Source of the DNA: Candidatus Enterousia sp.
GTDB taxonomy: Bacteria; Pseudomonadota; Alphaproteobacteria; Rs-D84
Length of the DNA stretch: 64,000 bases
Direction of reading: 5' to 3'
Assembly (NCBI GenBank): GCA_045612805.1
Contig: JAZKZR010000008.1
Span: forward strand, 6,276-70,275
Below, piece by piece: positions 2,704-50,727 of this stretch. Every line of letters starts with the position of its first letter. Within the stretch, counting starts at the first letter, position 1. Under the pieces are notes generated by a model. That model did not search any database and was not told the DNA's origin. It saw only the letters and a program-made list of their open reading frames with translations. Both the position numbers and the translations under genes were made by a program.

Positions 2704-4413
2704 TTATTTATTTTTATCCGTAATTGCGTTATCAAGTTTCGAATAATTTTCACTGCGCATTTCTTGCAATGTGCGGGAAATTATTTCATCGGATACACCA
2801 AGTTTTTCCAAAACCCCGTGCGCCAACATCAACGAAGATTCCACTGTTTCCGGCCATGCTTCTTCGACGCCTTCGTTGGTCAGTGCGCGTGATTCACACA
2901 AATTGCGCGCACGTGCAAAAATTTTCACCTTTGGTGCGATGCCCCTTATTGTTAAAACCGCATTACGCGCGGTCGCCGCATTATCAAGCGCAACAACAAC
3001 CGCACGCACGCGACGCGATGCCAAACCAAATTCACGCAAAACCGTGTGATTCGTGCTGTCGCCATAAAATACATTGTACCCATGTTCACGCCCAAGCATG
3101 ACCGCATTTACATCCAAATCAAGTGCGACGTATGGTATTTTTCGCGCACGCAAAACATGCGCAATTATTTGCCCCACACGACCGAAACCACATATTAAAA
3201 CTTCGGGTTTTGTTTCATTGTCGGTTGCGTTTAATTGGCGCATACGCGAACGTGCAAACATTTTTTTCGAACGGAAAATTTTATCGTGCAAGGTTAGCAA
3301 GAACGGCGTTGACACCATAGATAAGATTATTATCGCGGTCAAAATTTCTTGGTCCGCGGCGGGCACGGCGGAAATGCCACTGGTTTTCATTGTCTGAAAC
3401 ATCAGCAACGCGAATTCGCCGCCCTGGCTTAACACCAATGCGATAAGGCGCGCATCAAAAACCGGAATGCCACGCACGCGCGACACCATAAACAGCGCAA
3501 AGAATTTTATAAAGACCAATCCGACCATACCGCCAATAACCCAATACCAATTCCGTGCAAGCACTTCAAGATTTAATCCCATCCCAAGCGATATAAAGAA
3601 TAACGACAAAAACAATAATGCATATGGGTCGATTTCTGCGCGGACCTGGTGACTGTATATTGTTTCAGACATTAGCATACCCGCCAAAAATGCACCAAGT
3701 CCCGTCGGCAATCCCAAAAGGTTCATCAACACCGCCCAAAGTGCGATGTTTAACATGATGGCAAGTAAAAATGCCTCTTTGGATTTTAATTTTGCCACAC
3801 GTTTTAGCACCGGATTCAAAACAAAACGGCCGATTACAACAACACCCAAAATCAATGTGACCGATGTCACCGTGACATCAATCAATGTTGCACCAAGGTT
3901 AAATGAACGTCCGGCAAACACCGGTAACATGGCAAGAAGCGGAATCGACAACAAATCTTGGAACAACAAAATTGAAAAAGTTTGATGTCCCATGGTCGTG
4001 TTTAACTGATTACGGTCGGTTAGTAATTGCAGGTCTTCGGACGTACTGGACATTGCGAACAAAAGTGAAATCGTGATTGTGCCAATCACCGACCATGTTG
4101 TCATTCCAAACAGAATTGGAAACAACATCATTGCAACCATTAAAACCTGGGTCGCACCGAAACCAAAAATTGTTCGACGCATGTTCCAAAGGCGTTTTAT
4201 ATTTATTTCCAAACCGATGGTGAACCACAAAAATAAAATTCCAAGGTCGCCAAGAAATGTCCATGTAGAATTCAGTTGAAACAAATCCAAAATATATGGT
4301 CCTGATATCATACCGGCGACCAAAAATGCAACCAATGCCCCAACACGCAACGTGCGCAGCAAGAACACCAGCACAAAAATCATCGCAAAAAATATCAGGA
4401 CCGATAAAGACAA
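2704..4413 (-). CDS. CPA2-family monovalent cation/H+ antiporter with a C-terminal TrkA-N (Rossmann) domain (KefB/KefC-like)
   Basis: About 12 TM helices, then a GFGRVGQIIAHVL Rossmann motif. Confidence 0.8.
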   Translation of the reverse strand: MSLSVLIFFAMIFVLVFLLRTLRVGALVAFLVAGMISGPYILDLFQLNSTWTFLGDLGILFLWFTIGLEINIKRLWNMRRTIFGFGATQVLMVAMMLFPILFGMTTWSVIGTITISLLFAMSSTSEDLQLLTDRNQLNTTMGHQTFSILLFQDLLSIPLLAMLPVFAGRSFNLGATLIDVTVTSVTLILGVVVIGRFVLNPVLKRVAKLKSKEAFLLAIMLNIALWAVLMNLLGLPTGLGAFLAGMLMSETIYSHQVRAEIDPYALLFLSLFFISLGMGLNLEVLARNWYWVIGGMVGLVFIKFFALFMVSRVRGIPVFDARLIALVLSQGGEFALLMFQTMKTSGISAVPAADQEILTAIIILSMVSTPFLLTLHDKIFRSKKMFARSRMRQLNATDNETKPEVLICGFGRVGQIIAHVLRARKIPYVALDLDVNAVMLGREHGYNVFYGDSTNHTVLREFGLASRRVRAVVVALDNAATARNAVLTIRGIAPKVKIFARARNLCESRALTNEGVEEAWPETVESSLMLAHGVLEKLGVSDEIISRTLQEMRSENYSKLDNAITDKNK

Positions 4414-4462
4414 TTCTCTCTCCGTACGACTCGCGATTTATTATAGCAAAAATTTGCGGTGT

Positions 4463-5290
4463 TTATGCAACAAGTTTTTTTGAAAGTTCAAGAAATTTTT
4501 CCGCCGTTAAATCTTCGGCGCGTTCCGTTCCCAATAAACCAAAACTTTCCCAATCAACATCGCGCATAATTCCGCGAATCATTTTTCGCCGCATTCCAAA
4601 AAGTTTTGCGGTTAAATTTTCAAGTGCCGAAATGTTTTCAATTTTCTTTATCTTTGCGGTGTTCGGAATTATTTGCACAACCGCGCTTTCCACCCGTGGC
4701 CGTGGCACAAACGCGGTTGATGGCACACCGAACAAAATTTTCGCGTCCGAAACGGTCGATGTTAAAACCGCCAAACGGCCATACGCATTATCACCCATTT
4801 TTGCAACAATTCTTTCCGCAACTTCGCGTTGAAACATTAGTGTCATTGATTTTATTGGTACGCCGTTCGCAATATCTTGCAACCAATTTACCAATAATTC
4901 CGTGCCGACATTATAAGGTAAATTTGCACAAATAGAAAATTCACCGCCCGCAATTTTTTTCATATCGACACGCAACGCATCATCATAGATAACTTGCAAC
5001 CGACCATTTGCGGCGGATTCAATTTGCGACAAAATTGGTTCAGTGGTTTTATCTTTTTCAATTGCAATTACGCGTCGCGCACCCGCGTGTAACAATGCCC
5101 GTGTAAGGCCGCCCGGTCCGGGACCAATTTCGATAATTGTTGTGTGTTCTAAATCTGGCACGGCGCGTGCGATGCGGCCGGTTAAATTTAGGTCAAACAA
5201 AAAATTCTGGCCGAATTGTTTTTTCGGTTCCAACCCCGCGTCACGCATCATTTCTGACACCGGCGGCAAAGATGAAATTTTATCCGTCAT
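4463..5290 (-). CDS. rsmA: 16S rRNA (adenine1518/1519-N6)-dimethyltransferase
   Basis: QNFLFD...IIEIGPGPGGLT, the KsgA SAM-binding motif. Confidence 0.9.
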   Translation of the reverse strand: MTDKISSLPPVSEMMRDAGLEPKKQFGQNFLFDLNLTGRIARAVPDLEHTTIIEIGPGPGGLTRALLHAGARRVIAIEKDKTTEPILSQIESAANGRLQVIYDDALRVDMKKIAGGEFSICANLPYNVGTELLVNWLQDIANGVPIKSMTLMFQREVAERIVAKMGDNAYGRLAVLTSTVSDAKILFGVPSTAFVPRPRVESAVVQIIPNTAKIKKIENISALENLTAKLFGMRRKMIRGIMRDVDWESFGLLGTERAEDLTAEKFLELSKKLVA

Positions 5291-5899: not shown

Positions 5900-7021
5900 T
5901 CAATGAAACACATAGCAATCAATTCCCGCGGACGATGCGCGATTTTTTAAGTTTTGGGCCGCGGATTCGGAAAGTCCCGTCACACGCACACGATAAAGTC
6001 CCGCGCCGTTCGGTTCCAAATGCGCGGTCGCACCGGTCGCATTTTTAACACGCGCAATCATCGCGTTTGCGGAATCCGTACTGCCGAACGCACCAAATTG
6101 AACACCAACGCCGCCGGTCGCATAGGTCGGTGTGGTCACCGGCGCAACCCTTGGTGCATCGTCCGCGTATTTTTGGACGATGGGCGATGTCACGGGCGCG
6201 GGTTCAACGGTATAGTTTGCCGCCGCACCGATACCATATGTTTCAAAACCACGATTCAACAGCCGCGTTGATACCGCCGCACGAACATCTTTGTTTTCCG
6301 CCCCCAATACAACCGACAGCAAGTGATGCCCCCCACGCGCCGCCGTTGCAACCAACGAATACTTTGATTTATCCGTATAGCCCGTTTTCATACCATCGCA
6401 CCCCGGATATGTTTCCAACAATCGATTTCCGTTCGTGTATGTTTTTCCGTTATAGGTCCACGTTTTTATTCCAAAATATTTCCAATACTGTGGGAAATGC
6501 TTATAAACCGCCATGGACAGCAACGCAATATCACGCGCGGTGGATAAATGGTCGTCGTCCGGCAAACCGGATGAATTTTCAAAATTTGTGTGTGACAGGC
6601 CGATTTCGCGCGCGACACGCGTCATCAATGATGCAAATGTTCCCTCTTTGCCACCCTTAAGGTTTTCGGCCAAAACCCGTGCGACATCGTTCGCGCTGTA
6701 CACCGCAAGTGCGATTATCGCATCTTCGACACGAATCTTGGAACCGGCGGCAAGCCCCAGTTTCACAGACGGTGCGGCGGCGGCACTTTGCGACACAATC
6801 AAATAATCATCCAAATGCAAACGCCCGTGTTCCAACGCATCAAATGTCAAATACAATGTCATAATCTTGGTCAAACTTGCCGGATAATTTGCATCGTTCG
6901 CATGTTCGGAAAAAATCACGCGTCCCGTGTCCATATCCGCAACCAGTGCCGCACGATAATCCGCCGCAAACGCGCCACCACAAAGTAAAACCGCAATAAT
7001 AAAAGATAAAATTTTTCTCAT
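5900..7021 (-). CDS. D-alanyl-D-alanine carboxypeptidase (PBP5/6 class) with a C-terminal SPOR domain
   Basis: Signal peptide MRKILSFIIAVLLCGGAFA, active-site SLTK, and a C-terminal FGAFGS...YRVRVTG SPOR-like module. An alternative GTG start exists at 7051. Confidence 0.8.
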   Translation of the reverse strand: MRKILSFIIAVLLCGGAFAADYRAALVADMDTGRVIFSEHANDANYPASLTKIMTLYLTFDALEHGRLHLDDYLIVSQSAAAAPSVKLGLAAGSKIRVEDAIIALAVYSANDVARVLAENLKGGKEGTFASLMTRVAREIGLSHTNFENSSGLPDDDHLSTARDIALLSMAVYKHFPQYWKYFGIKTWTYNGKTYTNGNRLLETYPGCDGMKTGYTDKSKYSLVATAARGGHHLLSVVLGAENKDVRAAVSTRLLNRGFETYGIGAAANYTVEPAPVTSPIVQKYADDAPRVAPVTTPTYATGGVGVQFGAFGSTDSANAMIARVKNATGATAHLEPNGAGLYRVRVTGLSESAAQNLKNRASSAGIDCYVFH

Positions 7022-14638: not shown

Positions 14639-15154
14639 TCAATACTGGCCGATGCAACCAAGATATGAATTTCCGGTCGATTCAAGGATATTTACAAACT
14701 TGTTCTTATCATGCCCGGCAAACAGTGCAAGTATTGTTCCCGCATCCGTCGCCAACATATCCGCAACGGTTGCGATTTCGGAACTCATTTTCTTGAAAAA
14801 TCCACTTGTTGGGTATATTTCCGCCGCGAACAGTTGGTGTGCCGCACGCCGGCCATGATGCGTTGCGGGCGCGCTTTCAATTACCATCAATTGGCATTCG
14901 GGGGAAACAATAACCTTGTCCGTTATGGCCGCGTCCCCACCCAGCAATTCGCCCCACCAACCGGTTGAACCGCAAAACACAGGGTAATAGATAACCGCAT
15001 CGGGGTGCGTGGCAAAAATATCGGCGACATTTAAATCGCCTGTGACAACTTCTGGCATTGCGCCAATTGCCGCATTTATAACTTTGCGCGCCGTCTGATA
15101 TGTGGTATCGGACTTCGTGCTGTGTGGCCAATAAAGAATCGGAAATCTACTCAT
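14639..15154 (-). CDS. flavodoxin-like fold NAD(P)H oxidoreductase family protein (KefG/MdaB-like)
   Basis: ILYWPHS...S N-terminal pattern and AVIYYPVFCGSTGWW resemble the Flavodoxin_2 family. Judged by eye only. Confidence 0.5.
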   Translation of the reverse strand: MSRFPILYWPHSTKSDTTYQTARKVINAAIGAMPEVVTGDLNVADIFATHPDAVIYYPVFCGSTGWWGELLGGDAAITDKVIVSPECQLMVIESAPATHHGRRAAHQLFAAEIYPTSGFFKKMSSEIATVADMLATDAGTILALFAGHDKNKFVNILESTGNSYLGCIGQY

Positions 15155-15223: not shown

Positions 15224-16519
15224 TTATTTTTTTAGGTTTTTCCACCATTTCCCAAGTGTTGCGCGGGTTAAATCGAAATCTTTTTTCGCCGTCACATAGA
15301 ATTTATCGGATATTTTGACATTGAATAATGTCTTTACCAGATTCGGTATCGATGTCATAAACACCGCAAAAAACGCCCCAAGCATTATGATGGACAACAG
15401 TCCCCCGTCCCGCAACATAAGGCCATCCATAAGAATTTGCGAATCGCCACTGGAAATTGCCGCCGCGATTCGGGATATTCCCCCAATGTGTCCCACAATC
15501 GCGTCTAAAAATGACAGACCAAACACCAAAAACACGACCGTCATGGCGATTCCGACCGTTCCGGTTATAACATCGTCTATCATGCCTTGGATATTTTTGC
15601 CACCCTTTGGAAAGATTTTATCCCACCCCTTAAACAGCCACGACAGCAACATCAGCGGCAACATAACCATATCCAGCGCAAGCGTCACGAATATTTCAAG
15701 AAAATAAAGCGGTATCGGCAAAAGTGCCATAAAATACAACGCCAAAACAAGAAGGCCTGCAAAAAATATCGGAACATTTGGGAAAATCGGAATATCCCAC
15801 ATAATTTTATGCATATATTCGGCGTTAAATGCCATATTCAACATTGTCCACCCAACCGTCATCCCAAGACCGGTCACTTGGTGCACATTGGCCAGTTCAC
15901 AGGTCAGACCACTGCGCAATTTTACCGGGAACGCCCCCGCCGGCATATTTCCGTTTGCCAATGATGTGCGATTCGCGTTTTCATCCAAAAGCGCCGTCGC
16001 CACCATACATTCGGAAAACTTTTCGGTGTCACCGATTATATGATTCACCGATAAACCAAGATTGAAAATCGGTTCAATAACAACGCCACTTATTAAACGT
16101 GGCAACGGAAATACCAACAACGCACTTACTATCGCCAATCGGATTAAATGCGTTCCAAAATTCGATGCCGTTGTCCAACCACTTTCAACCTTGCCGTTCA
16201 TAAAGTTTGATGCAAGTGTCCATGTGAAATACACCGCCGTAAGCATCGCCGCAATTGGAATTATGACTTCGCCGATGCCGTAATAAATCGGTGGTAAAAT
16301 GTTTGAAAGTTTCGCCATGATGGAAGAAAACATTTCGCATGTCCAACACGAAGAAAAAAAACTAAGCGCATCTTGCATATCAACCGGTGCCGTACTGCGC
16401 CAGATTGAAAATCCCGCAATCGTTGCCGCGCCCGCCGCAAGCAGCCATGGCAATATCGCGCCCGCCGATAATGGAAAGAACGATAAAAATACAATAAAAA
16501 ATTTTTTTAACTTGCTCAT
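15224..16519 (-). CDS. polytopic membrane protein, paralog 1 of 5 (candidate VirB6/TrbL-like)
   Basis: Signal peptide/TM1, a CWTCEMF motif before TM2, about 7 TM with a ~100 aa central hydrophilic loop, and a Lys-rich C-terminus. Divergent from paralogs 2-5. TATAAT lies 7 nt upstream of the ATG. Confidence 0.7.
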   Translation of the reverse strand: MSKLKKFFIVFLSFFPLSAGAILPWLLAAGAATIAGFSIWRSTAPVDMQDALSFFSSCWTCEMFSSIMAKLSNILPPIYYGIGEVIIPIAAMLTAVYFTWTLASNFMNGKVESGWTTASNFGTHLIRLAIVSALLVFPLPRLISGVVIEPIFNLGLSVNHIIGDTEKFSECMVATALLDENANRTSLANGNMPAGAFPVKLRSGLTCELANVHQVTGLGMTVGWTMLNMAFNAEYMHKIMWDIPIFPNVPIFFAGLLVLALYFMALLPIPLYFLEIFVTLALDMVMLPLMLLSWLFKGWDKIFPKGGKNIQGMIDDVITGTVGIAMTVVFLVFGLSFLDAIVGHIGGISRIAAAISSGDSQILMDGLMLRDGGLLSIIMLGAFFAVFMTSIPNLVKTLFNVKISDKFYVTAKKDFDLTRATLGKWWKNLKK

Positions 16520-16583
16520 TTCATTTAATTATACCACAATTTTGCCAAGATGTGATATAAATCGAATTATAAATGTAGGAAGT
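16520..16583. promoter_or_regulatory. divergent promoter region of the membrane-protein array
   Basis: 64 bp AT-rich spacer between P1 (-) and P2 (+). ggtataat sits on the P1 side and gtaggaagt SD on the P2 side. Confidence 0.4.
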
Positions 16584-17867
16584 ATGTTTTTACATCGTTT
16601 GCTTTTTGCAAAATTTTTAAGGCGGATTATTGTGCCGGCGTTATTGGTCGCGGCCTTTGTCACGCCGGGCGCGGCATTTGCAAAGTGGGAAATTGTTGAT
16701 AAATTAAATCTTGCGCCGTTTGTGCCACGTGTATTGGATGCGTTTATGATGGTTGCGCGTGGCGGTTATGAATACTTTGTGGGTTCGGGTGACGGAATCA
16801 TTTATATTTTTGTTTGGGCGTTTTTGGCGATATCTATTTTTATGTACGCGTTCAAAATGTATTTTCCAAAACGGTGGTTGGAATTTTTCGGAATGTCCGG
16901 CGGTGGCGAAATGTGGGACGGCAATGTTAAAGGTTTCACGATGGTTGAAACGGTCCTTAAAAGTGGTGTTCGCGCAATTGTTGCCGCGGTGTTGCTGTTG
17001 CAGGTTAGGCCGATTTATGTCACACAATGGTTGGTGAATCCGTTCTTGGAATTTGGTGCAATTTATACATCAGCGATTACCGACCAGGCGAATATCACCG
17101 GAGTAAAAAAGCAAAACATCGAATGTCCTGAAAGTATTTTATCAAATGATTGGATAAGTAAAAAAAGTTGCAATTTTTTAATACAACCAATATCTGATTT
17201 GTCGGCGGTGAATAATGCGGTTGTTAAACGCGGGTTTGAATTTGTGTCGCGTGGAATTCGTGGGTTATTCACTATATTTTCACACGGCGGTCAAAACATA
17301 ATGGATATGATAACGGGCGTGTTGTTGATATTTACCTTTGTTGGATGCAATTTGTTTATGGCGTTGCTAATTATCCAAGGTATATTTGATTTTGGCGTTG
17401 CACTTATTCTTTATCCGTTTAATGTTTTGGCATGGGTTGCAAAGAAAAGTGACAAGTGGCTTGATATCTGGCCGGCGTTTGATGGAATTATTACGGCACT
17501 GCGCAAACTGGTTATCACGATGATTGCGTGCGCGTTTATTATGATTATAAATGTTGCGATTGTGCATGCGTTGTTTGGTTTGAATAACAGTGTATTTAAT
17601 GTTGTGGCGGGCGGAACCGCGACAAGTAATTTGGTCACGAACAGTGCGATTGGATTTGGTGGACATTCTATGCTGTGGCTATCGTCGATACTTACGTTCT
17701 TTTTAATGAATGCGATATTTGAAATGACCAAAGACCAACTAAACAAATATGCGCCGGGCATGACAGGCATGTACGAACAGGTCAAAGGTGATTTTAACGC
17801 GACAACGGCAAAGGCCAAGGGAACATATGAATCAATAAAAAAGATATTGGGGCTTATTAAAAAATGA
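16584..17867 (+). CDS. polytopic membrane protein, paralog 2 of 5
   Basis: Start moved to ATG 16584 (SD aggaag, signal peptide MFLHRLLFAKFLRRIIVPALLVAAFVTPGAAFA). The longer 16299 ORF would overlap P1. About 6-7 TM, C-terminal KKILGLIKK. Confidence 0.7.
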   Translation: MFLHRLLFAKFLRRIIVPALLVAAFVTPGAAFAKWEIVDKLNLAPFVPRVLDAFMMVARGGYEYFVGSGDGIIYIFVWAFLAISIFMYAFKMYFPKRWLEFFGMSGGGEMWDGNVKGFTMVETVLKSGVRAIVAAVLLLQVRPIYVTQWLVNPFLEFGAIYTSAITDQANITGVKKQNIECPESILSNDWISKKSCNFLIQPISDLSAVNNAVVKRGFEFVSRGIRGLFTIFSHGGQNIMDMITGVLLIFTFVGCNLFMALLIIQGIFDFGVALILYPFNVLAWVAKKSDKWLDIWPAFDGIITALRKLVITMIACAFIMIINVAIVHALFGLNNSVFNVVAGGTATSNLVTNSAIGFGGHSMLWLSSILTFFLMNAIFEMTKDQLNKYAPGMTGMYEQVKGDFNATTAKAKGTYESIKKILGLIKK

Positions 17868-19084
17868 ACGGGATATTGAACGGTTTTGTTGATACCGCGG
17901 TGCAATGTTGGGGGTGCGCTGTGTTTGATAACCTGTTCCGCGTTGTGTCAAATGCGGGTGCCGCCGTTTATAATAAAATCGCCGACATATGTTTTATACT
18001 GTTTGCGGTGCTGTTTGTGTTCTTTGTTGTGTGGGCGGTGTGGAAACATGTGAACCCGAAAAAGCCGGAAACAGGCGACCCGTTTTATATGAAATCGGTT
18101 GTGCGCGTTGTTATAAATTCACTGTTTGCACTAACATTACTTGGCGTTGGTGTTGGGTTTCCACGCTTTATAACACGCGTCACATTTGAACCGGTTGCCG
18201 ATGTGACGTTGATATACAGCCAGGCAATGTTGCAAACGACCCCGGCGGCGGTTGATGAACGCGTACCATATAAGTTAGAAAAAATGAACGATGATGGTTT
18301 TTTTAGACCTGCGCTGCGCAACACAATTATATCGATAATGAAAACAACCGTGACAATGTTTCAAGATTATATGAAACTTGGGATTGCGGTTATGGACGGT
18401 GCATTTTCATGGAAACATATTCATAACCTTGGCGATATATTCCGACATATTATTATGTTTTTTGTGGGGCTATATTTGTTCTATGGATTTTTCAAGTTGT
18501 TTATAAAATTTTGTTTTTATTTCGTAGATGTGATTGTAGATATGGCGATGTTTGCGTTTCTGTTTCCGATTGGACTTATGATGATGTCGTTTCGTGGTGG
18601 TGAAATGCCCGATTGGATGTCGTCATTGGGCAAAGGTCTTGGCACAAACCAACTAAAAAAACTTATTAGTGCGATTATAACACTTGCATCGGCGGTGATA
18701 ACATACATGGTAATCCTTGCGATTATATCACGGTATTTTTCTGATGCCGGCATGGATACCAACGAATTGATGAACTCAATTTTATCGGGCGAAGTTTTTG
18801 CATCTGATTTATCAGAAGAAAACCTTGCAAGTATTACATTGATTGGCGCAATAATTTTGGTGTATGTTTTGAATTATATATACAAGCAAATTCCAAATGT
18901 TTCAAAAATGGTACTTGGGGCATTTGGTGCAAGTGACGGCGAAAATAAACTAAGTGAACAAATGGCAAACGATGCAGAAAAATTAGTTGCGCTTGTTACA
19001 AACGGGATAAAAAATGTCGGCAACAAAATTATAAATAACGGTGAAAAGAAAGACGAAAAAACGGGTGACGAGAAAACTAAATGA
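17864..19084 (+). CDS. polytopic membrane protein, paralog 3 of 5
   Basis: ATGA overlap with P2. A CWGCAVFD motif before TM1 aligns with the CWTCEMF of P1. Lys/Glu-rich C-terminal tail. Confidence 0.7.
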   Translation: MNGILNGFVDTAVQCWGCAVFDNLFRVVSNAGAAVYNKIADICFILFAVLFVFFVVWAVWKHVNPKKPETGDPFYMKSVVRVVINSLFALTLLGVGVGFPRFITRVTFEPVADVTLIYSQAMLQTTPAAVDERVPYKLEKMNDDGFFRPALRNTIISIMKTTVTMFQDYMKLGIAVMDGAFSWKHIHNLGDIFRHIIMFFVGLYLFYGFFKLFIKFCFYFVDVIVDMAMFAFLFPIGLMMMSFRGGEMPDWMSSLGKGLGTNQLKKLISAIITLASAVITYMVILAIISRYFSDAGMDTNELMNSILSGEVFASDLSEENLASITLIGAIILVYVLNYIYKQIPNVSKMVLGAFGASDGENKLSEQMANDAEKLVALVTNGIKNVGNKIINNGEKKDEKTGDEKTK

Positions 19085-20538
19085 AAAAATTATTCCTTGG
19101 GTATCTTGTTCGATTCTTGTTCGGCGCAATCGCGTTGGGTGTTGGCGTTTGGTATGTAAGTTCATCGCTATCGGGTGCGTCATTGACATACACCAGTATG
19201 GATGGATTCTTGCGTTCAATCGGTGCGGGGGACGGAAATGTTGCGTCCACCAATGGTTGTTTCCTTTGCAAATATGTGAATGATTTGTTCTTTGTCCTGG
19301 GCGATGCGTCGGAATCTTTTTGGCATGCAATTGTTTCACACCTTTGGATTTTAATGGTGATTGGGTTTGGTGTTTTCCTGTTTATACACAGTGCGAAATA
19401 TATTTACAAGGCAATGATGGAAACAACAAAATTGGACACGGGTGAAAAGAAACTTGCGTTCGGTCCGTGGTTCGATGATGTTTGGAAAAATGGCGTGCGA
19501 ATTATGATTGTCGGTGCAATTATCGGTGCGTTTGGTATGGGTGGCATATCATCAATAAAGGCATTATCAAACATAACGATTCAACCGGTGATGTATGTCG
19601 GAACGGAACTGTCCATGGCGGCAATGGGCATATCAAGTTCCGCACAATGCGTGCCGGCGGAAATCGGTGCGGATAATCCGATGTCATCGGTTTCAAATTC
19701 ATTTATGTGTATTGTTGGGAATATCAACAGTGTTATGCTTGCGGGCGCGGCGGGCGGATTCGCACTGATGAATTACGCGTGGATGGGATTGGGTGGTGGC
19801 GCATTCACATGGATTGCGGGATTGTTGGTTGTGATTATGTTTGTGGTGATTGGGTTCAATTTGTTCTTTGAAATTTTGTCGGTGATATTCAAACTTGTTT
19901 TCCTTGTGATATTTTTACCATTACTTGCGGCGGCGGCGGCATTTGAAAAAACATGGAAAAAGGCATCGGGTGTTGTGAACGGTGCGGTAAAAATGTTGAT
20001 TGAATCCGCGATCAAGGTTGTTGCAATATCATTAAAGGTTGTGATTGTTTACGCGATGGTGTTCTTTGCCGCCGACGAATTTTTCCCCGGGCCGGTGGAT
20101 AAATATAGTGCGATATTCCCACCATTGTTGGTTGGTGAAGTAATGCCAACCGATGCCACCGCGTTGTCCATAAGAAATGTTTTTGCAACATGTGAATCGG
20201 CGGCAACGATAAACGGCACGGTGGATAAAGACGCATTCAAAAATTGCTTTAATTTGCATCGGGCACAAATCGAATCACGATATCCGGGCGCATTTGATTT
20301 TATGCGTGACGGTTTTGGATTTTTGCTATTGATGGCGGGGTTGATATTTATATATTTCTATGTTTTGGCGCCACGTGTTGATAAACTTATTGCAAGTGTG
20401 CCATCATTTGAACCGTTTGGAAAATCCGATGATAGTGGCGGCGGTGTTGATAATTTTGGCACAGATTTGAAAAAATTGGTCAAAATGACATGGAAAAAGC
20501 CACAAGAATTTGCGGATAAATTGATAAAGGAAAAATGA
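19081..20538 (+). CDS. polytopic membrane protein, paralog 4 of 5
   Basis: ATGA overlap with P3. N-terminal signal anchor, a GCFLCKY motif, and an Ala/Gly-rich double TM. Confidence 0.7.
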   Translation: MKKLFLGYLVRFLFGAIALGVGVWYVSSSLSGASLTYTSMDGFLRSIGAGDGNVASTNGCFLCKYVNDLFFVLGDASESFWHAIVSHLWILMVIGFGVFLFIHSAKYIYKAMMETTKLDTGEKKLAFGPWFDDVWKNGVRIMIVGAIIGAFGMGGISSIKALSNITIQPVMYVGTELSMAAMGISSSAQCVPAEIGADNPMSSVSNSFMCIVGNINSVMLAGAAGGFALMNYAWMGLGGGAFTWIAGLLVVIMFVVIGFNLFFEILSVIFKLVFLVIFLPLLAAAAAFEKTWKKASGVVNGAVKMLIESAIKVVAISLKVVIVYAMVFFAADEFFPGPVDKYSAIFPPLLVGEVMPTDATALSIRNVFATCESAATINGTVDKDAFKNCFNLHRAQIESRYPGAFDFMRDGFGFLLLMAGLIFIYFYVLAPRVDKLIASVPSFEPFGKSDDSGGGVDNFGTDLKKLVKMTWKKPQEFADKLIKEK

Positions 20539-21815
20539 AAAACATAATTAAAAAATTTTTATTGTTTGTTGTTTGTATCGCTTTTTGCGGTGTGGCGGTG
20601 GCGGCGGAATCTAATTTGGTGACCGGCGACATTGGCGATTTCGGTGCATGGACAACCGAACACAATCGCGAAGAACTTATTCAAACCGTGCAAAATGATT
20701 TGGATGGTTTTGAGTCAGGATTCGAACGCGAATATGTTGAAACCGGTGTTCCGATAGAGGCAAAACTTGGGATATCTTTTATGAGTGCATTGACATACAC
20801 GGCACATATTTTGGATGATTCGTTGGTGCGGTTTGTAAATATATTTTTGATTGTCGCTTTCATTTTTTGGGTTATGTTCGAAGCGTACCGAATGATTAAA
20901 GATTCCAAAGTCAAAGCGATGCCGACGGTCGAAGACATAATAAAAAAAGGTATCACACTTGCGATATGGTTGATAATTTTGGGAATCGGATTGCCACGAT
21001 TGTTTGGAATGATTATGGGGCCGATTGTTGCGTTTGGTTCGTATGTTGCGAATCTGATTTTGGATACGGTTGCGAAAATTGGTAATTTTGAACTTTCCGA
21101 CACATGCGCCGCAATTCAAAATTATGCCGCGACACATATGACAGACACATCAATTGTTGATGCAAAAACCGCCGCAGATATTATGTGTGTGCCAACGCGT
21201 ATGTCCGGGTTTTATTATGGTGCGATAAAGTTCGGTTGGAAAATGATGGGCGCGGGATTGGGGACCAGCACATTTACATTTTTAATGGGATTGGTGTTTG
21301 TTGTCTTGTTCATATACACCGCATTTAAGTTTGCATTTGTTGCGTTTGGTGTGATTGCGGATTTATTTTTAGTGATAATACTGTTGCCATTTACGGCGAT
21401 TGCGGAAACGGTTCAAAAGACATCGTACAAAGGTATCGCCGGCGATATATATAATGGGTTCCTTGGCATATTCAAAACTTCAAATCTTTCGTCCCAGGTT
21501 AAAAAGTTCATTGATGCGGCGATTTATTTTGTCGCGCTTGCAATTGTTGTTTCGATTGGTGGCGCGTTGCTTGGTGGGGCGGTTCAATTAAACACGCAAA
21601 CACATATTATTTCTATATTGGACGGCAATGTTATCACATTACTTATGACCGGTGCGTTGGTTGCGTATATTGCAACGCATGCGGATGAAATTGCAAAGTC
21701 AATTGGTGGTGGAATTGATGCGGGAATCGGAACAAACCTGCAAAAAGATTTGAAAACACTTTATACCGACACCAAGAAAAAGGCCGAAGAATTTATCAAG
21801 GCGTTAAAGAAATAA
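20535..21815 (+). CDS. polytopic membrane protein, paralog 5 of 5
   Basis: ATGA overlap with P4, SD aagga. Signal peptide MKNIIKKFLLFVVCIAFCGVAVAA. The stop is 4 bp from the convergent uvrD stop. Confidence 0.7.
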   Translation: MKNIIKKFLLFVVCIAFCGVAVAAESNLVTGDIGDFGAWTTEHNREELIQTVQNDLDGFESGFEREYVETGVPIEAKLGISFMSALTYTAHILDDSLVRFVNIFLIVAFIFWVMFEAYRMIKDSKVKAMPTVEDIIKKGITLAIWLIILGIGLPRLFGMIMGPIVAFGSYVANLILDTVAKIGNFELSDTCAAIQNYAATHMTDTSIVDAKTAADIMCVPTRMSGFYYGAIKFGWKMMGAGLGTSTFTFLMGLVFVVLFIYTAFKFAFVAFGVIADLFLVIILLPFTAIAETVQKTSYKGIAGDIYNGFLGIFKTSNLSSQVKKFIDAAIYFVALAIVVSIGGALLGGAVQLNTQTHIISILDGNVITLLMTGALVAYIATHADEIAKSIGGGIDAGIGTNLQKDLKTLYTDTKKKAEEFIKALKK

Positions 21816-21819
21816 AAAT

Positions 21820-23901
21820 CTAATCGATAATTTTTACAAAACTTTCGGCAACTTTTTTAATTCCTGTGCGATTAAATGCAACCGTCAAAATTCCGCCGTT
21901 TGATTCAATAACAACACCACGCCCAAGTTCACCGTGTTCAACCAATTTTCCAACAATACTTTTAACCGTATGTGTTTTCTGTTGCGTTGGTCGTGCGGGC
22001 GTTTCATACCGCGGTGTACGTCCACCAAAGTCCAAATACCGATTATCCATTTCGGTTATGAATCGCGCCGGCGAATAGTATTGACGCGCACCGAAAATAA
22101 CACGTGACATTGTGTTTGTGATAATCGCACGCCGCCGCGCGCGTGTCAGGGCGACATAGGCCAAGCGGCGTTCTTCTTCCATTCCGCCTTCTTTGATTGA
22201 TTTATCATTTGGGAAAATTCCATCTTCCCATGCGGGCAAAAACACCGTATCAAATTCCAAACCTTTGGCGGCGTGAATCGTCATTATATTTACCGCCTGG
22301 GTATTATCGGCGATTTCATTATCGTTATCATCGGTTGTCATCAATGCCGCGTGTTCCAAAAAGTCCGGCAAACTGTCGTATGTTGAAATAACATTTGTAA
22401 TTAAATCACGAATGTTTGAAATTCTTTCTTCGGCGTCGGGGTCTTTGGATTCGCGCCAGTATTGCATATATTTTGCATCTTCAAGTAATTTTTTCACCGC
22501 ATCCGCCGGGCGCATAGATTGCCATTCAAAATCAAACACAGATAAAAATTCATTGGCGGCGATTCCTTGCTTGCCCCCAAAATTTGCCGCGCGCAATCCG
22601 GCCATCAGTGAACCGCCCGCCGCGCGCATTTTTGCAATTGCCGTTGGACCAAATCCGCGGCGCGGTCGCGCAATCACGCGGGCGAACGAAACATCATCTT
22701 CCGCATGCACCAACAAACGCACATATGCGATAACATCGCGAATTTCCATACGGTCATAGAACTTGGTTGTTCCAATCAACCGATACGGAATACGCGCATT
22801 TGCGAATTCTTCTTCGAATCCGCGCGAAAGTGAACCCGTGCGAATCAAAACCGCAAAATTCGAATAATTGCCATTTGCATATCGCAAAATTGTGTCGGCA
22901 ATCAGTTTTACTTCGTCATAATTTGATGGCACCGTTAGGACATAGACCGGTTCGCCAACGCTTTTTTCATCCGCCGGGCGCAGGTCTTTGCCCAATCGCC
23001 CGTTGTTGTGTCGTATCAATGAATTCGCCGCGCCAAGTATGTTTCCGGTACTGCGGTAATTTGTTTCAAGGCGTATGATTTGCGCGCCCGGAAAATTTTT
23101 TTCAAATTCCAAAATGTTTTTTATTTCCGCCCCGCGCCAAGAATAAATCGATTGGTCATCATCGCCCACGCAACACACATTAGGTTTTTCCACATCACGC
23201 GTTAGCAATTTTATAAACTGCATTTGCGCATTATTTGTATCTTGGAATTCATCGACCATAATGTATTTGAATTGCCGGGCGTATTTTTCGCGCACATCCG
23301 GCGCAGATTCAAACAATTTCAGAACAAGCAAAATAATATCGCCAAAATCAACCGCACCCAATCGCCGCAATTCCGCATTGTAATCACTTAGGATTTTTTT
23401 CGTGCGCGCACCGATGTCGGGGCTTTCGATATTTCCGCGGTCTTTGATATTTGAAATTTTTTCGACCCAATCGCCGGCATCGTATTCCTTGGCGTCCGCA
23501 CCCATCGCGGCAAAGACATTTTTCAAAACCGCCTTTTGGTCATCTTCGCCAAAGATTATAAAATCCGACTTTAACCCCGCGCGCGCGGCGTTCGCCCGCA
23601 AAATACGCAGACATATTGAATGAAATGTTCCGCACCATAAATCGCGCGCATAAAAATTGCCGCCGCCCGCGTTTAAAATTTCCGCGATGCGATTTTTCAT
23701 CTCGTTTGCGGCCTTGTTCGTAAAGGTCAGTGCCAAAATTTGCCACGGCAACGCCAAATTCATATTTAATATGTGCGCAACCCGCATAACCAGCACGCGC
23801 GTTTTTCCCGTTCCCGCACCCGACAGCACCAAAACCGGCCCCGCGGTTGTTTCGACCGCTTTCTTTTGTTCGGGGTTAAGATTTTCTAGATTTACATTCA
23901 T
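21820..23901 (-). CDS. uvrD: ATP-dependent DNA helicase, UvrD/Rep family
   Basis: Walker A GAGTGKT, motif II DEFQDTN, and the VALTRAR motif VI region. Confidence 0.88.
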   Translation of the reverse strand: MNVNLENLNPEQKKAVETTAGPVLVLSGAGTGKTRVLVMRVAHILNMNLALPWQILALTFTNKAANEMKNRIAEILNAGGGNFYARDLWCGTFHSICLRILRANAARAGLKSDFIIFGEDDQKAVLKNVFAAMGADAKEYDAGDWVEKISNIKDRGNIESPDIGARTKKILSDYNAELRRLGAVDFGDIILLVLKLFESAPDVREKYARQFKYIMVDEFQDTNNAQMQFIKLLTRDVEKPNVCCVGDDDQSIYSWRGAEIKNILEFEKNFPGAQIIRLETNYRSTGNILGAANSLIRHNNGRLGKDLRPADEKSVGEPVYVLTVPSNYDEVKLIADTILRYANGNYSNFAVLIRTGSLSRGFEEEFANARIPYRLIGTTKFYDRMEIRDVIAYVRLLVHAEDDVSFARVIARPRRGFGPTAIAKMRAAGGSLMAGLRAANFGGKQGIAANEFLSVFDFEWQSMRPADAVKKLLEDAKYMQYWRESKDPDAEERISNIRDLITNVISTYDSLPDFLEHAALMTTDDNDNEIADNTQAVNIMTIHAAKGLEFDTVFLPAWEDGIFPNDKSIKEGGMEEERRLAYVALTRARRRAIITNTMSRVIFGARQYYSPARFITEMDNRYLDFGGRTPRYETPARPTQQKTHTVKSIVGKLVEHGELGRGVVIESNGGILTVAFNRTGIKKVAESFVKIID

Positions 23902-26295: not shown

Positions 26296-27534
26296 TTAAC
26301 GGGCTTTGATGCTAAATTGACCAGTTAACATATTGATACACACATAATCGCCTTTTTTTATTTTTTCAAACTCAGCACGGCGGCCCCAAGTTTCCAAAAC
26401 TGTAAAATCAAGATTTTCACGCAACATATTACCATGATGCCCATATAGGCCATCGAATGGGGAATTTGACCAATCAAAATCAAACTTGAATTGCACCCCA
26501 ACAGAATTTTTGGTAAAAACATATACAGATTCACCAGATTTCCAAATATTTATATCATTATATTCTTGTGTTGGTACGGGCCTTATACTATCTATGAAAC
26601 CGACATAACCTTCTATAATTGGTTTGTCCAATGAAAATACGGATTTAGTGCTTGCATCTATATCGCGTCCATAAAATTCAGGCAAACAATATGGACGCTG
26701 TTGCACTATATTTATTTTATTATCTTTTGACACAACAAATTCCATATCCACAGGATAACCTAAATCTGGTTCCAATTCTGAACACAAAGCAGAAATTAAA
26801 AAATGATTTCGGTATGTTTCACGGTCCTGTGCGTAAACCCTTTGTGGTGAACCAGTAAAAGAGTTAGGATAAAACATCATATTATATTCTAAATTATCGA
26901 TACTGGACAAATTAAACCTGATCATCTTGTGGTTTTTATCAGAAATGGGTTTGGCTGTGGCAAATCTATGAAAATTAGAAAAATTTTTATCAGATAACAA
27001 TTTATCTGCAAAATCATTTTGAACATAATTCATTACGATAAAAGGTGCACCCAAAAATGTTTCAGAATACACAACGCCGGCCATTTGCGACGTTGGAACC
27101 ATTGATTGTAATATAACACCCATTTTGGCATTTGGCACATTTGCCGCAGATGCATAAACAGTATTTAGTGCCTTGGCCATATGTTCGCGTGTTCTTACAT
27201 TTAAAACACTTTCAAATTGACCCGAAAAAGTTTTCCCTTTTTTATCTTCTATATCCGCAGAAGAACGCACAGCGATATTGCCACCCAATCTGTCCATATA
27301 AAGCATCGCCGAATCTATTAAATCTTCTTGGATATACCCTTGTTTTTTATAATCATTAAACCTTGATACCGGAATCACAAATGTGTCTGGGACAATGAAA
27401 CCCGTTTTGTATTGCGCGTTATACTTTTCAATCAGTGTTTTTAATTGATAAAGCCCTGCAAATTTGCCGCCACCAATACTACTTGCGGTATGGGCGTTTA
27501 CATTTTCTAACGAAATGATTGTGTTATCTGTCAT
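26296..27534 (-). CDS. stand-alone PEP-utilising-enzyme N-terminal (PPDK_N, ATP-grasp-like) domain protein
   Basis: IGGGKFAGLYQL nucleotide-binding loop, RSSADIEDKKGKTFSGQFESVLNV, and DMEFVVSKDNKINIVQQRP match the ATP-binding domain of PEP synthase / PPDK / rifampicin phosphotransferase. No His swivel domain or PEP/pyruvate domain is present. Confidence 0.6.
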   Translation of the reverse strand: MTDNTIISLENVNAHTASSIGGGKFAGLYQLKTLIEKYNAQYKTGFIVPDTFVIPVSRFNDYKKQGYIQEDLIDSAMLYMDRLGGNIAVRSSADIEDKKGKTFSGQFESVLNVRTREHMAKALNTVYASAANVPNAKMGVILQSMVPTSQMAGVVYSETFLGAPFIVMNYVQNDFADKLLSDKNFSNFHRFATAKPISDKNHKMIRFNLSSIDNLEYNMMFYPNSFTGSPQRVYAQDRETYRNHFLISALCSELEPDLGYPVDMEFVVSKDNKINIVQQRPYCLPEFYGRDIDASTKSVFSLDKPIIEGYVGFIDSIRPVPTQEYNDINIWKSGESVYVFTKNSVGVQFKFDFDWSNSPFDGLYGHHGNMLRENLDFTVLETWGRRAEFEKIKKGDYVCINMLTGQFSIKAR

Positions 27535-39867: not shown

Positions 39868-41073
39868 TTACTTTACTGATTGATTTTTATTTTCGCATTT
39901 TTTGATTGCCGCATTCCAATGTTGACCTTTGCTACAAAGAACACAATTTTTGTATTCCGATGGACTTGATTTCATCCAACATTTTCCAACATTGTGCATC
40001 CCGTCTAACAAATCTTTTGCATACAGCGTATATTCAACACACTTTTCACCGTTGACACCTTGCGTTTTGGTCGTTGCGCACGGAATACATGTTTTATTTT
40101 CATCAAGCCCATAGCCATCTATGCAAGTATATTTTTGGCACGTTCCATCTTTGTATATTTTGTAATTTTCTGTGTAACTAGTTGGTTCAGACCAACCACT
40201 GCACCATCCATTACTAGATTGATTATCGTTGTTGCATTCACAAGCAGTAGCATCGCTGTTTGGCACATAACCATCATAACACAACAATACAGGGCTTTCA
40301 TTTGAATATGCGGAACTTATCCAGCTTTTTATTCCACCACCAGTTTTACTCCGTTGTCCGACAATTTTAATTGGTGCAACCTTTATTCCATGCGCAACTT
40401 TCCCAACAACCCCAAGGACGACATGATCTGTTTTACGGTCTTCATCATCTGTTCCATACTTACTGGTATAAGATATTACTTCCATTTCCGTCGTATGGCG
40501 ATAGGTAGTCCCTGTTTCAGCATAATAACTCGTATATTCTGAGCGTAGATTTGTCCATTTTGGTAACCCGGTAAAATATCCAGTTGGTCCACGTCCCATT
40601 AAACCGCCACCTTGTGAGGCAGGTGTACCTGTCACAGAACACATCTCAGCACCCGGCACCCCACATGTTGCTCCAGTATACCCTTTGACACAGACAGTTT
40701 TGCAATTTTTCCAAACATCGTCGTCATTGTTCCAATAATAATCCAGCCAAACCCAATATTTACCATTTTTATTAGCGGCCTGTATTTGCACTGGGCAAAA
40801 TTCCGCACCGTTATCATAAATTTTTCGTGCCGCCCAGATTATAATCGCCCCTTCGTCATCGTATGTACCATGTCGAACGTGATTTTCGTTTTTGGCAAAT
40901 TCCGCCTCCACGTCCGGATAAAAATCTGTAATACTCGTTGAAAAAGAATTGCTTGCCTTCCACCATGGTGAAACTTGTGTTTTTTGAGGCTCGGGTAACC
41001 AACTTGGGACTTCTGCCCCCATCGCACCGCTGGCCAAGATTATTCCGCAAATTGCAATAATTATTTTTCTCAT
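39868..41073 (-). CDS. secreted Cys-rich protein (401 aa) with CxC..GY..C repeats; family member C
   Basis: Signal peptide MRKIIIAICGIILASGAMGA, plus modules CKTVCVKGYTGATC, CYDGYVPNSDATACEC and CIDGYGLDENKTCIPC. Confidence 0.65.
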   Translation of the reverse strand: MRKIIIAICGIILASGAMGAEVPSWLPEPQKTQVSPWWKASNSFSTSITDFYPDVEAEFAKNENHVRHGTYDDEGAIIIWAARKIYDNGAEFCPVQIQAANKNGKYWVWLDYYWNNDDDVWKNCKTVCVKGYTGATCGVPGAEMCSVTGTPASQGGGLMGRGPTGYFTGLPKWTNLRSEYTSYYAETGTTYRHTTEMEVISYTSKYGTDDEDRKTDHVVLGVVGKVAHGIKVAPIKIVGQRSKTGGGIKSWISSAYSNESPVLLCYDGYVPNSDATACECNNDNQSSNGWCSGWSEPTSYTENYKIYKDGTCQKYTCIDGYGLDENKTCIPCATTKTQGVNGEKCVEYTLYAKDLLDGMHNVGKCWMKSSPSEYKNCVLCSKGQHWNAAIKKCENKNQSVK

Positions 41074-47627: not shown

Positions 47628-47706
47628 TGACATGTGATAGTAGTATAGTTCGCAATCGAACTGTGCGGTGAAAGGGTTGGAATTCCGGGACATTTAGGAG
47701 AGTTTG

Positions 47707-49764
47707 ATGAAGAAAAATTCTTTGCAAAATTTTGGCAAAAATGCATTGGGCACGATGTTCTTGCTGGTTGGTGCGTTTTTGGTTTGTTCAACATTTTTAT
47801 CGATGCGGGTTGTGTTCGCCGATCCGATTGGACCGATGCTTGGGAATGACGAAACCGCGGGTGATGGTTTAACACTGGGGTGGCAAAGTCCGCGCAATAG
47901 CACGGGCCGTAATGTTCGCGCAACCGCGCCGCGGCCCACAACCGGGGTGGCCACAACAACCGCAACACGTAATGTTGTGCAACGCCCAACAACCGATATT
48001 GCACGTGGTGCGACCGCACGCGGTGTCGTTTCACGTGAATTGGCGCGCCGTTCTTCGCGCGCGACCGCGCCGACACGCACCGTTCGCGCACGCACCGCAA
48101 CGACAAATCCCGCGCGCGTGTCTTTACAGGGCGATGCAATTCGTGGAACCAAAACCATTAGCGGGACATATTACACATATTTGAACAGCAAACTTTACAC
48201 CGGGAATTACAGCAATATCGTTGATTCTTCGACGGGGCTTATTTCCGCGGACGCGTATAGCAACTGTTTGGAATCGTACTATACGTGCATGGACGAAATC
48301 TGCACCGCCCGTAACGAGGCACAACGCCGTTGCGCATGCGCCGGCCGGGTCAAAGCATTTGCAGAGGCGGAAAATGCACTAAATTCCGCGAATGAAGAAT
48401 TGATTAAAATTTCCGGACAGTTGGCATTGCTGATTGCAAACAAGGGCAAAGAGGTTAGTGCGGCATTCGAACTGACCGATGCAGAAAGGGTTATGAATTG
48501 CGTTTCATGGCGAGAAGCGAGTGATAACGGAACGAATTCTAACAAATTTGGCGATTGGTGCGCGGAACACGGGCTCTTTAGTTCTGGCGGACGTGACGTT
48601 TGTTCATATAATCAGGCACCATCGTATTGCACAAGCGAACAGGTTTATGGGTTTAATGTCGCCAATTTGGATGGGGCTGGGTCTGATATTTTGGCATCAC
48701 TTTCGGCATGGGCGGATGAAGTAAAGGCGAACACCGATACGATTCTGGCGGATAACACAGATTCCGTGTTCCAAGCGATGGAAAATGTGACAACAATTTT
48801 GAATGGAATCGGCGGTTCGACCGCGTCAATAATCAACGAAGAAACACGCGATACACTTGCGGAAACATGGGGATACGATTTGTTCCGCTATGCACATAAT
48901 AATGTTTGTGCACGTGTTTTGGATTCTTGCTTTAACGGAATATACGAAGGTTGTGGCACACCGCCGTCGGGTGGCCGTTGCGCGAACGGTGCAACATCGT
49001 CTTGTCCGTTTAATTACAACAGCAAAGTGACGATTTCTTCGTCTGGCGATGTAAAATTAAACGAACGCAGCAATATCGGCACCGCCGCGAATGCGTCTTG
49101 CTTTGGTTACAGTTCTTCGAACGACCCGTATGAAAACCTGCGTGGACCGGTTGCGGATGCGCGGCGCAGCGTGATGCAAAAATACTTGCTGGATGCGAAC
49201 GCGGATTGCGATTTGTACGGCGAACAGTTAAAGGCAACCGCACAAAAGATTGCATATCAAAAGGTTGCTGCACAACAGGCGTTGCAACAAAAACGGTTAG
49301 AGTTTTATAACAACGAACGCGATGAGGTCTTGTCCAAGGCGACCGCCGCGGGGACGAACTTTAACGAATGTATAAGTGAACTTTGGGATTGTTATGAAAC
49401 CCAGGCGCAGTCAAATGAAAATTGGCCGGATGCGCGTATTAAAACATATTGCGCACAGATTGCAAATGTTCCGCATTGCTATCAAGATATGATTTGCAAT
49501 CCGTCGTATGCACAATTTCGTGCGGTTATTGACAAACCAGATGGTTCTTGTACATGGAACGCAAGTGATTATACATTAAATACTTGTCGTAATATTGTGA
49601 CATTGAACGAGATATTAAATGGTGCCTCGTCAAATTACGGCAATCCACCAATGCCAAATGGTAGTGGTAATTCTGCGGATTTCCGTGAACAATGCCTGCG
49701 TGATGCCCTTGGGTGTCCGGGCGATGGATGTATCCGTAACTGGCGACGTTCCAGTGGTAATTAA
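47707..49764 (+). CDS. large secreted Cys-rich protein, paralog A (685 aa)
   Basis: Signal peptide, an Arg/Thr/Ala-rich low-complexity region, a conserved CLESYYTCMDEICTARNEAQRRCAC block shared with paralog B, a coiled-coil-like middle, and a Cys-dense C-terminus. SD aggaga. Confidence 0.7.
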   Translation: MKKNSLQNFGKNALGTMFLLVGAFLVCSTFLSMRVVFADPIGPMLGNDETAGDGLTLGWQSPRNSTGRNVRATAPRPTTGVATTTATRNVVQRPTTDIARGATARGVVSRELARRSSRATAPTRTVRARTATTNPARVSLQGDAIRGTKTISGTYYTYLNSKLYTGNYSNIVDSSTGLISADAYSNCLESYYTCMDEICTARNEAQRRCACAGRVKAFAEAENALNSANEELIKISGQLALLIANKGKEVSAAFELTDAERVMNCVSWREASDNGTNSNKFGDWCAEHGLFSSGGRDVCSYNQAPSYCTSEQVYGFNVANLDGAGSDILASLSAWADEVKANTDTILADNTDSVFQAMENVTTILNGIGGSTASIINEETRDTLAETWGYDLFRYAHNNVCARVLDSCFNGIYEGCGTPPSGGRCANGATSSCPFNYNSKVTISSSGDVKLNERSNIGTAANASCFGYSSSNDPYENLRGPVADARRSVMQKYLLDANADCDLYGEQLKATAQKIAYQKVAAQQALQQKRLEFYNNERDEVLSKATAAGTNFNECISELWDCYETQAQSNENWPDARIKTYCAQIANVPHCYQDMICNPSYAQFRAVIDKPDGSCTWNASDYTLNTCRNIVTLNEILNGASSNYGNPPMPNGSGNSADFREQCLRDALGCPGDGCIRNWRRSSGN

Positions 49765-50685: not shown

Positions 50686-50727
50686 TCTTTTTTCCCTTTT
50701 TGTTTTGTGATATAATTACAGGTGAGT

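Follow-up and report, generated by a model that had tools for sequence, protein, structure and literature searches.

A window of 64,000 nucleotides from Candidatus Enterousia sp. (assembly GCA_045612805.1, contig JAZKZR010000008.1), i.e. the whole stretch of DNA that was analysed, contains at positions 15224-21815 an array of five genes, here named P1 to P5, that encode predicted membrane proteins of 406-485 amino acids (aa). The array is best explained as a multicopy VirB6 module, similar to that of Rickettsiales, of a type IV secretion system (T4SS) that is scattered over the chromosome, and a probability of roughly 0.6 is assigned to this reading. The membership of P1-P5 in the VirB6/TrbL superfamily, on a branch out of the reach of the Pfam model PF04610 (TrbL), is supported since three independent lines of evidence point to it, namely the predicted fold, a sequence bridge through distant relatives, and orthologous arrays in related bacteria.

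P1 (15224-16519, minus strand, 431 aa) is transcribed divergently from P2 (16584-17867, 427 aa), P3 (17864-19084, 406 aa), P4 (19081-20538, 485 aa) and P5 (20535-21815, 426 aa), which are all encoded on the plus strand. All five open reading frames (ORFs) were found where a preliminary description of this DNA, made from the sequence, had placed them as one divergent and four coupled genes. The ATGA overlap that it reported was read at every one of the P2/P3, P3/P4 and P4/P5 junctions.

Structural models were obtained with AlphaFold2 for P1 (predicted local distance difference test, pLDDT, 78; predicted TM-score, pTM, 0.70) and P3 (pLDDT 62.7). Both modelled paralogs returned the same two best Foldseek matches, both of which are stalk or channel proteins of T4SSs. 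The top match of the P3 model was TrwI (8rt9_F) with an E-value of 0.025, a probability of 0.99 and TM-scores of 0.31/0.41. The alignments covered 93-95% of the TrwI chain, and values of 13.8 and 10.4 were reached compared to a background of 8.4. Based on these models, P1-P5 are predicted to have the VirB6 fold as found in the stalk of R388 (PDB 7O3V/8RT9). The likeness to TrwI, the VirB6 protein of R388, extends over nearly the whole resolved chain and includes one or more N-terminal transmembrane (TM) segments, a large helical region in the periplasm and a TM cluster starting with P-L-x-x...F/W-x-x-T. Nevertheless, the identity to TrwI and the VirB6 of A. tumefaciens is only 9-12% without a direct profile match, and the Enterousia proteins carry an additional segment at the N-terminus and additional TM helices at the C-terminus. 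Furthermore, TrwI is encoded by one gene in a conjugative operon and forms a homopentamer, whereas five heterologous genes in a chromosomal core locus are found here.

The second line of evidence is based on sequence profiles. An exhaustive HMMER search with a P3 profile against 1.84e9 representative sequences (E<=1e-3) yielded only 133 matches, and all 10 of the 10 clusters whose names were checked originated from uncultured Alphaproteobacteria. PF04610 was matched by 20 of the 56 distant full-length relatives found with this profile, including P0241 (32.6 bits) and P0236 (29.3 bits) above its gathering cut-off of 25.9 bits. HMMER E-values of 1e-7 to 1e-4 connect the P3 family with proteins that exceed the gathering cut-off of TrbL, and the matches to TrbL and to the P3 profile are colinear, with positions of about 82-100 of the TrbL model corresponding to about 185-200 of P3. 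The hidden Markov models (HMMs) of P1, P3, P4 and P5 each match TrbL-positive proteins independently, and the P1 HMM reaches 72 bits for P0206 and 54 bits for P0231. As a separate observation, some VirB6-like relatives with lengths of 650-1300 aa (P0227, P0229, P0251) are fused to a Peptidase_M23 domain, which is a peptidoglycan endopeptidase. Judging from the domain content, such a fusion would join cell-wall remodelling, a VirB1-like task, and the VirB6 platform in one protein.

The canonical VirB6 motif, PLFILALIWQPT in TrwI and GPLILTGYIFDRT in Ti VirB6, aligns with LPLMLLSWLFKG, YPFNVLAWVAKK, LPLLAAAAAFEKT and LPFTAIAETVQKT in the array. Recognisable counterparts of the boundary segment (PLFILALIWQPTHRFFDQW in TrwI, GPLILTGYIFDRTRDIAAKW in Ti VirB6) were found in all five proteins, with the motifs LPLMLLSWLFKGW in P1, YPFNVLAWVAKKSDKWLDIW in P2, the most divergent paralog, FPIGLMMMSFRGGEMPDW in P3, LPLLAAAAAFEKTW in P4 and LPFTAIAETVQKT in P5. 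A tryptophan is located within or beside this motif in P1-P4. When a broad alignment was used, hhalign aligned residues 278-328 of P1 to residues 171-214 of TrwI with a probability of only 5.4%, yet exactly at the boundary motif. The conserved P-[LFI]-x6-8-[FW]-x2-[TS] segment would mark the transition from membrane to cytoplasm as in TrwI and VirB6.

The third line of evidence comes from orthologous arrays in distant relatives. Five paralogs each were detected in four related loci (L091, L092, L094 and L087), the first three of which also agree in gene order. L091 represents a sister genus (metagenome-assembled genome, MAG, GCA_024402715.1) and shows the synteny seen in Enterousia. L092 contains five tandem genes, with orthologs of P1, P3 and P4 at E-values of 3e-29, 2e-22 and 9e-34. 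The tandem genes of L094 encode proteins of 551, 675, 663, 510 and 833 aa whose best HMM matches follow the order P1 to P5, and all five are matched by the P1 HMM. The 551 aa member reaches 28.1 bits for TrbL, which is above the cut-off, and the 510 aa member is an ortholog of P4 (P4 HMM, E-value 4.5e-22) with a TrbL E-value of 0.0015. In L087, a 1+4 arrangement of 705 aa plus 497, 687, 634 and 605 aa was found. Three of these proteins are TrbL-positive, with the 687 aa (29.9 bits) and 705 aa (29.3 bits) members above the cut-off. In L094 (33 kb contig) and L087 (about 10 kb), a virD4 gene is located on the same contig at a distance of 8-10 kb from the array. Together with the TrwI matches and the profile bridge to PF04610, these TrbL-positive arrays near virD4 bear out the suggestion of the preliminary description that the genes form a VirB6/TrbL-like paralog array.

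The virD4 genes of these gut alphaproteobacterial MAGs stand alone among housekeeping genes (L087, 1-524; L093, 10001-12112, for L093/L094; L096, 9773-11878), with PPDK, ribosomal protein, recF-like, mutL and iPGM genes as neighbours. None of these lone virD4 genes is the terminal gene of a virB8-11 operon, and their scattering is more extreme than that of the T4SS islets of Rickettsiales.

Further genes are located beside the arrays of the relatives. A divergent gene set with a small RHH_4 protein lies upstream of the arrays in L092 (3562-7212) and L094 (2313-5986, minus strand) and also includes genes for proteins without annotation, about 141-148, 172-188, 268-370 and 438-564 aa in length. 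Of these, the 172 aa protein of L092 and the 188 aa protein of L094 are homologous (E-value 3e-15). For the 438 and 370 aa proteins of L094, no sequence match in the PDB was found, and the 438, 370 and 188 aa proteins had no significant NCBIfam match apart from one spurious weak match for the 438 aa protein. Therefore, the L094 genes cannot be called VirB8-10. The proteins of this set could be unrecognised T4SS parts or regulators, and Enterousia has no counterpart of it at the position adjacent to the array. Directly upstream of the five-gene array of L094, a gene (6061-6327, plus strand) encodes a protein of 88 aa that has two TM segments and whose size and position fit a putative VirB3-like protein; no family match beyond one spurious weak one was found for it. 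In L091, a protein with a Fic/RhuM domain and an unannotated one of 1035 aa are encoded immediately next to the array, at its P5 end (3488-4483, minus strand). Fic proteins are often T4SS effectors.

The relationship among the five genes was assessed with orthologs of every paralog taken from 84 related loci. With BLASTP, P1 and P3 (E-value 1e-13, 23% identity over 362 aa), P4 and P5 (5e-10) and P3 and P4 (6e-4) could be linked directly, and P2 only weakly. Near-full-length colinear alignments of the ortholog profiles with hhalign resulted in probabilities of 97.9% for P1-P3, 94.1% for P1-P4, 91.5% for P3-P4 and 91.1% for P2-P5, followed by P1-P5 (81.4%), P1-P2 (76.5%) and P4-P5 (74.7%). Hence, the five proteins align beyond generic hydrophobicity, as the preliminary description had supposed. 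The paralogs of one array share about 19-26% identity, whereas each paralog is 43-99% identical across species. It follows that the duplications are ancient and that purifying selection acts on each copy. All five genes occur in the same order in 75 of the 84 loci, the others being cut by contig ends, and 1:1 orthologs of P2 and P5 were found in 80 and 82 loci, respectively. P1-P5 are thus true but ancient paralogs that are older than the divergence of several deep lineages. A recent expansion in situ, which had been proposed as one option, was ruled out by the 1:1 orthologs of each paralog and the identical gene order in L091, L092 and L094.

A Kyte-Doolittle scan revealed about 6-7 hydrophobic segments and a hydrophilic stretch of about 95-105 aa in the middle of each protein, and the C-termini are rich in Lys/Glu. 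P1-P5 are accordingly predicted to be polytopic membrane proteins whose central loop comprises about 100 aa, which agrees with the earlier topology. The signal peptide or anchor previously ascribed to all five proteins was found in P1 (signal or anchor segment), P2 (signal-peptide-like) and P5 (signal peptide), but P3 lacks a signal peptide and begins directly with a helix carrying a CxxC motif. This motif is real in P1 (C58/C61), P3 (C15/C18) and P4 (C60/C63), where a shared cysteine motif had already been noticed, and is not present in P2 or P5. It is invariant among 45 P3 orthologs and nearly so among distant relatives. In addition, cysteine pairs that had escaped earlier mention are located in the central stretch of P1 (C171/C207), P2 (C181/C196), P4 (C190/C210) and P5 (C191/C218), and P4 has a second pair (C371/C389). 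A DsbB-like redox role of the CxxC motif and the loop cysteine pair was considered but not adopted; one or the other of these elements is missing from P2, P3 and P5.

For P2, the ORF opens at 16299, and the ATG at 16584 results in a protein of 427 aa. This ATG is most likely the start, judged from the sequence, because it results in a divergent spacer of 64 bp and fits the orthologs of 430-431 aa called in other assemblies. The spacer between P1 and P2 (16520-16583), seen as previously described, is presumed to be a shared control region. It contains the promoter-like matches ATCACA-17-TATAAT on the minus strand, ending at 16528, and TTGCCA-17-AATTAT on the plus strand, ending at 16570. The TATAAT reported near P1 is consequently present. 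However, promoter-like matches occur in the region at chance density (24 found compared to 21.2 expected), so that it is no evidence for a promoter by itself and the function as a control region is putative.

Translational coupling of P2-P5 and expression of P1 from the shared divergent region would provide the five proteins in matched amounts. They may then co-assemble in the inner membrane into a hetero-oligomeric platform or channel of the VirB6 type, possibly as a hetero-pentamer with a stoichiometry of 1:1:1:1:1. We infer co-assembly as the most economical mechanism for five coupled VirB6-type genes. The helical mid-domain with its cysteine pairs (P1, P2, P4, P5) and the CxxC helix (P1, P3, P4) would face the periplasm, an orientation suggested by the loop cysteine pairs, and the Lys/Glu-rich tails would be located in the cytoplasm. 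The remaining T4SS genes would lie singly at dispersed sites of the chromosome, similar to the rvh system of Rickettsiales. In R388, a VirB6 pentamer is the membrane-embedded base of the stalk and a proposed platform for pilin and substrate, and DotA forms a pentameric protochannel (PMC12981334).

Several results weigh against this reading, and the first group concerns the identity of the proteins. No match to TrbL (PF04610) at E<=10 was found for P1-P5 with hmmscan against Pfam, and no T4SS model of NCBIfam was matched. Neither P3 by itself nor a profile of 45 P3 sequences retrieved a sequence match from the PDB. Aligning the ortholog profiles to TrwI, or to TrwI and Ti VirB6, with hhalign resulted in probabilities of about 5% or less. 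P5 lacks the boundary-segment tryptophan that was reported to be essential in the VirB6 of A. tumefaciens (PMC2653234). These empty Pfam, NCBIfam and PDB searches, along with the weak Foldseek E-value and the low TM-scores, would fit an unrelated family of helical membrane proteins, for example a transporter or envelope factor, whose likeness to VirB6 is due to a generic helix bundle and hydrophobic composition. Such an origin is, however, at odds with the models of two paralogs that share the same two best T4SS matches above background over almost the entire TrwI chain, with the colinear bridge to TrbL proteins above the cut-off, with the shared motif at the expected position, and with the linkage of the array to virD4 in relatives. 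It is considered highly improbable. The profile search of the paralogs against PF04610, which had been suggested as a check, thus produced no direct match and would have wrongly rejected the VirB6 identity.

The second group of results concerns the T4SS itself. The searchable DNA comprised the window, which is about 7% of a genome of about 0.9 Mb, and the +/-10 kb surroundings of the array in the 84 related loci. VirB2-B5, VirB8-B11 and VirD4 were not found in the window by Pfam. A tblastn search with R388 VirB2-B6, VirB8-B11 and TrwB, Ti VirB2-B4 and VirD4 fragments detected no T4SS partner in the window or in the +/-10 kb of the 84 Enterousia loci, and only self matches were returned. None of the best 120 relatives of a 407 aa VirD4 query (at least 53% identity to gut alphaproteobacterial VirD4) was traced to Enterousia, and with a VirD4 fragment of 173 aa as the query, only fragments were retrieved. 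In contrast to islet A of the rvh system, virB3-virB4 is not located upstream of the array, which is flanked by a 171 aa gene, an inositol monophosphatase gene and uvrD here and in the 84 loci. A metabolic survey of Rs-D84 genomes does not mention a secretion system (PMC12306168). Finally, the hetero-pentamer is purely inferred, and four VirB6 copies are found in Wolbachia (bioRxiv 10.1101/2025.08.29.673095) and most Anaplasmataceae (PMC2653234).

These absences would also be compatible with an orphan, repurposed VirB6 module that works as an autonomous inner-membrane channel or platform after the T4SS ATPases and the outer-membrane core were lost, or without Enterousia ever having had them. 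This module might serve to take up metabolites, lipids or macromolecules or to exchange them with a partner cell, or it might be involved in envelope biogenesis. It would fit the location of the array among envelope and housekeeping genes (PBP1A, MraY, FtsW, MurG, uvrD, dnaQ) in all lineages, and the compact Enterousia proteins have diverged so far that Pfam TrbL no longer detects them, unlike those of the relatives with virD4 nearby. However, no member of the VirB6 family is known to work without VirB4. Moreover, the relatives with the five-gene unit do have a lone virD4 within 8-10 kb amid housekeeping genes, and only the small part of the genome given above is visible. Since T4SS genes are singly scattered in these relatives, a local absence is expected even if a T4SS is present. 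The survey describes Enterousia and its order Rs-D84 as having genomes of less than 1 Mb, lacking most biosynthesis pathways and standard transporters, and probably depending on partner cells (PMC12306168), which also suits a repurposed module. Overall, such a module is judged possible but less likely than a scattered T4SS. The earlier statement that no T4SS gene is adjacent to the array was confirmed for the window and the 84 loci, and its description as an orphan or detached module holds on this local scale only.

The multicopy VirB6 module proposed here resembles RvhB6a-e in several aspects. Rickettsia has five arrayed VirB6 genes with an amino acid divergence of about 80%, each of which is conserved, and they belong to a T4SS that is distributed over islets (PMC2653234). 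Likewise, several tandem VirB6 genes are found in Enterousia, five in both cases, the paralogs are highly diverged (19-26% identity) and each is kept across species, and the host is an alphaproteobacterium with a reduced genome. Multicopy RvhB6 is a hallmark of rvh, which is a signature of Rickettsiales, along with duplicated VirB4, VirB8 and VirB9 and the lack of VirB5 (PMC11077975). In addition to the missing virB3-virB4 genes upstream, the Enterousia proteins differ by their length of 406-485 aa compared to 668-1154 aa for RvhB6, without the long flanking extensions, by undetectable Pfam TrbL, and by a clade-specific CxxC motif and one inverted gene. Furthermore, the host lineage is the GTDB order Rs-D84 and not Rickettsiales, although the label 'Rickettsiales bacterium' is loosely applied in a few NCBI records. 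Thus, membership in the VirB6 superfamily is supported, but the array cannot be assigned to rvh, of which one defining feature was not found here. DotA of the Legionella Dot/Icm type IVB secretion system (PDB 9NGY) is likewise a pentameric inner-membrane channel that shares structural features with VirB6 (PMC12981334). Nevertheless, no sequence relationship to P1-P5 was detected. With 857 residues in the chain, DotA also greatly exceeds them in size, and it functions together with IcmX, whereas no analogue of IcmX/VirB5 was seen here.

At E<=1e-3, 613 P3 homologs were found, all of which are nameless or annotated as 'hypothetical protein' and none of which has a Pfam domain; all with an organism name are MAGs of Alphaproteobacteria. 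When each GTDB species was represented by one genome, 244 P3 relatives were detected, including Candidatus Enterousia, rumen and gut MAGs, and a circular chromosome of 958,618 bp (OZ007020.1). The conserved synteny comprises L31, inositol monophosphatase, the 171 aa gene, P1 | P2-P5, uvrD and dnaQ, and P1|P2-P3-P4-P5 is a conserved core-chromosome unit of the Enterousia clade. An origin from a mobile element was ruled out by this core synteny and by a composition that matches the surroundings. A tblastn search of P3 against plasmids returned no match.

On the P1 side, the gene of the 171 aa neighbour (14639-15154, minus strand) follows downstream of P1 in the same orientation, at a distance of 69 bp. 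This neighbour is found beside P1 in L001-L004, L028, L044, L063 and L091, i.e. in Enterousia and the sister genus, with 66-76% identity. The assumption that it is flavodoxin-like could not be substantiated, as no Pfam, NCBIfam or PDB sequence match was obtained, and it is uncertain whether it is part of the module. On the other side, the convergent uvrD gene (21820-23901, minus strand) ends 4 bp past P5 and no terminator-like hairpin is predicted between them, as previously described.

Elsewhere in the window, three secreted Cys-rich ORFs with a signal peptide each were observed at 39868-41073 (minus strand, 401 aa), 47704-49764 (plus strand, 686 aa) and 50722-53301 (plus strand, 859 aa). The two longer ones have a T/R/A-rich low-complexity N-terminal part and look mutually related. 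None of the three had a Pfam or NCBIfam match, and they can be regarded as candidates for surface or adhesion proteins in a bacterium that depends on partners. The window also encodes a pair of PPDK-related proteins at 26296-27534 and 53377-56223 (both minus strand), comprising, in this order, a 412 aa protein that matches only the ATP-binding domain PPDK_N and may be a truncated paralog, and a full-length PPDK (pyruvate phosphate dikinase) of 948 aa.

The array adds a multicopy VirB6 outside Rickettsiales, in very abundant gut Alphaproteobacteria with genomes of less than 1 Mb, whose VirB6-like proteins have been wholly missed by annotation. PF04610 misses a whole branch of the VirB6 family. 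The purpose of multicopy VirB6 has been called a mystery (bioRxiv 10.1101/2025.08.29.673095). A copy number of five in the same order was found in the lineages examined, four of which are deeply diverged, and five is also the stoichiometry of the VirB6 and DotA pentamers determined by cryo-electron microscopy. This constant number suggests a stoichiometric explanation of multicopy VirB6 and leads to the testable idea of a hetero-pentameric stalk base, for which the compact and extension-free proteins provide a suitable sequence set for multimer modelling and co-evolution analysis.

The array may even represent a VirB6 machine that works without a T4SS in a minimal gut symbiont. In the strongest form of this idea, Enterousia would lack any VirB4, VirD4 and outer-membrane core, and the five VirB6-derived proteins would form an autonomous hetero-pentameric channel for exchange with other cells; in a milder form, the constant five, found in four deep lineages and also in Rickettsia, would reflect a one-of-each replacement of the VirB6 homopentamer. 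Both are regarded as speculative and rather unlikely. If the former is true, a T4SS stalk protein would have been turned into a machine of its own, and the latter would explain the proliferation of VirB6 in rvh systems. For the organism itself, the array provides a first molecular handle on how Enterousia and other Rs-D84 bacteria may interact with their partner cells.

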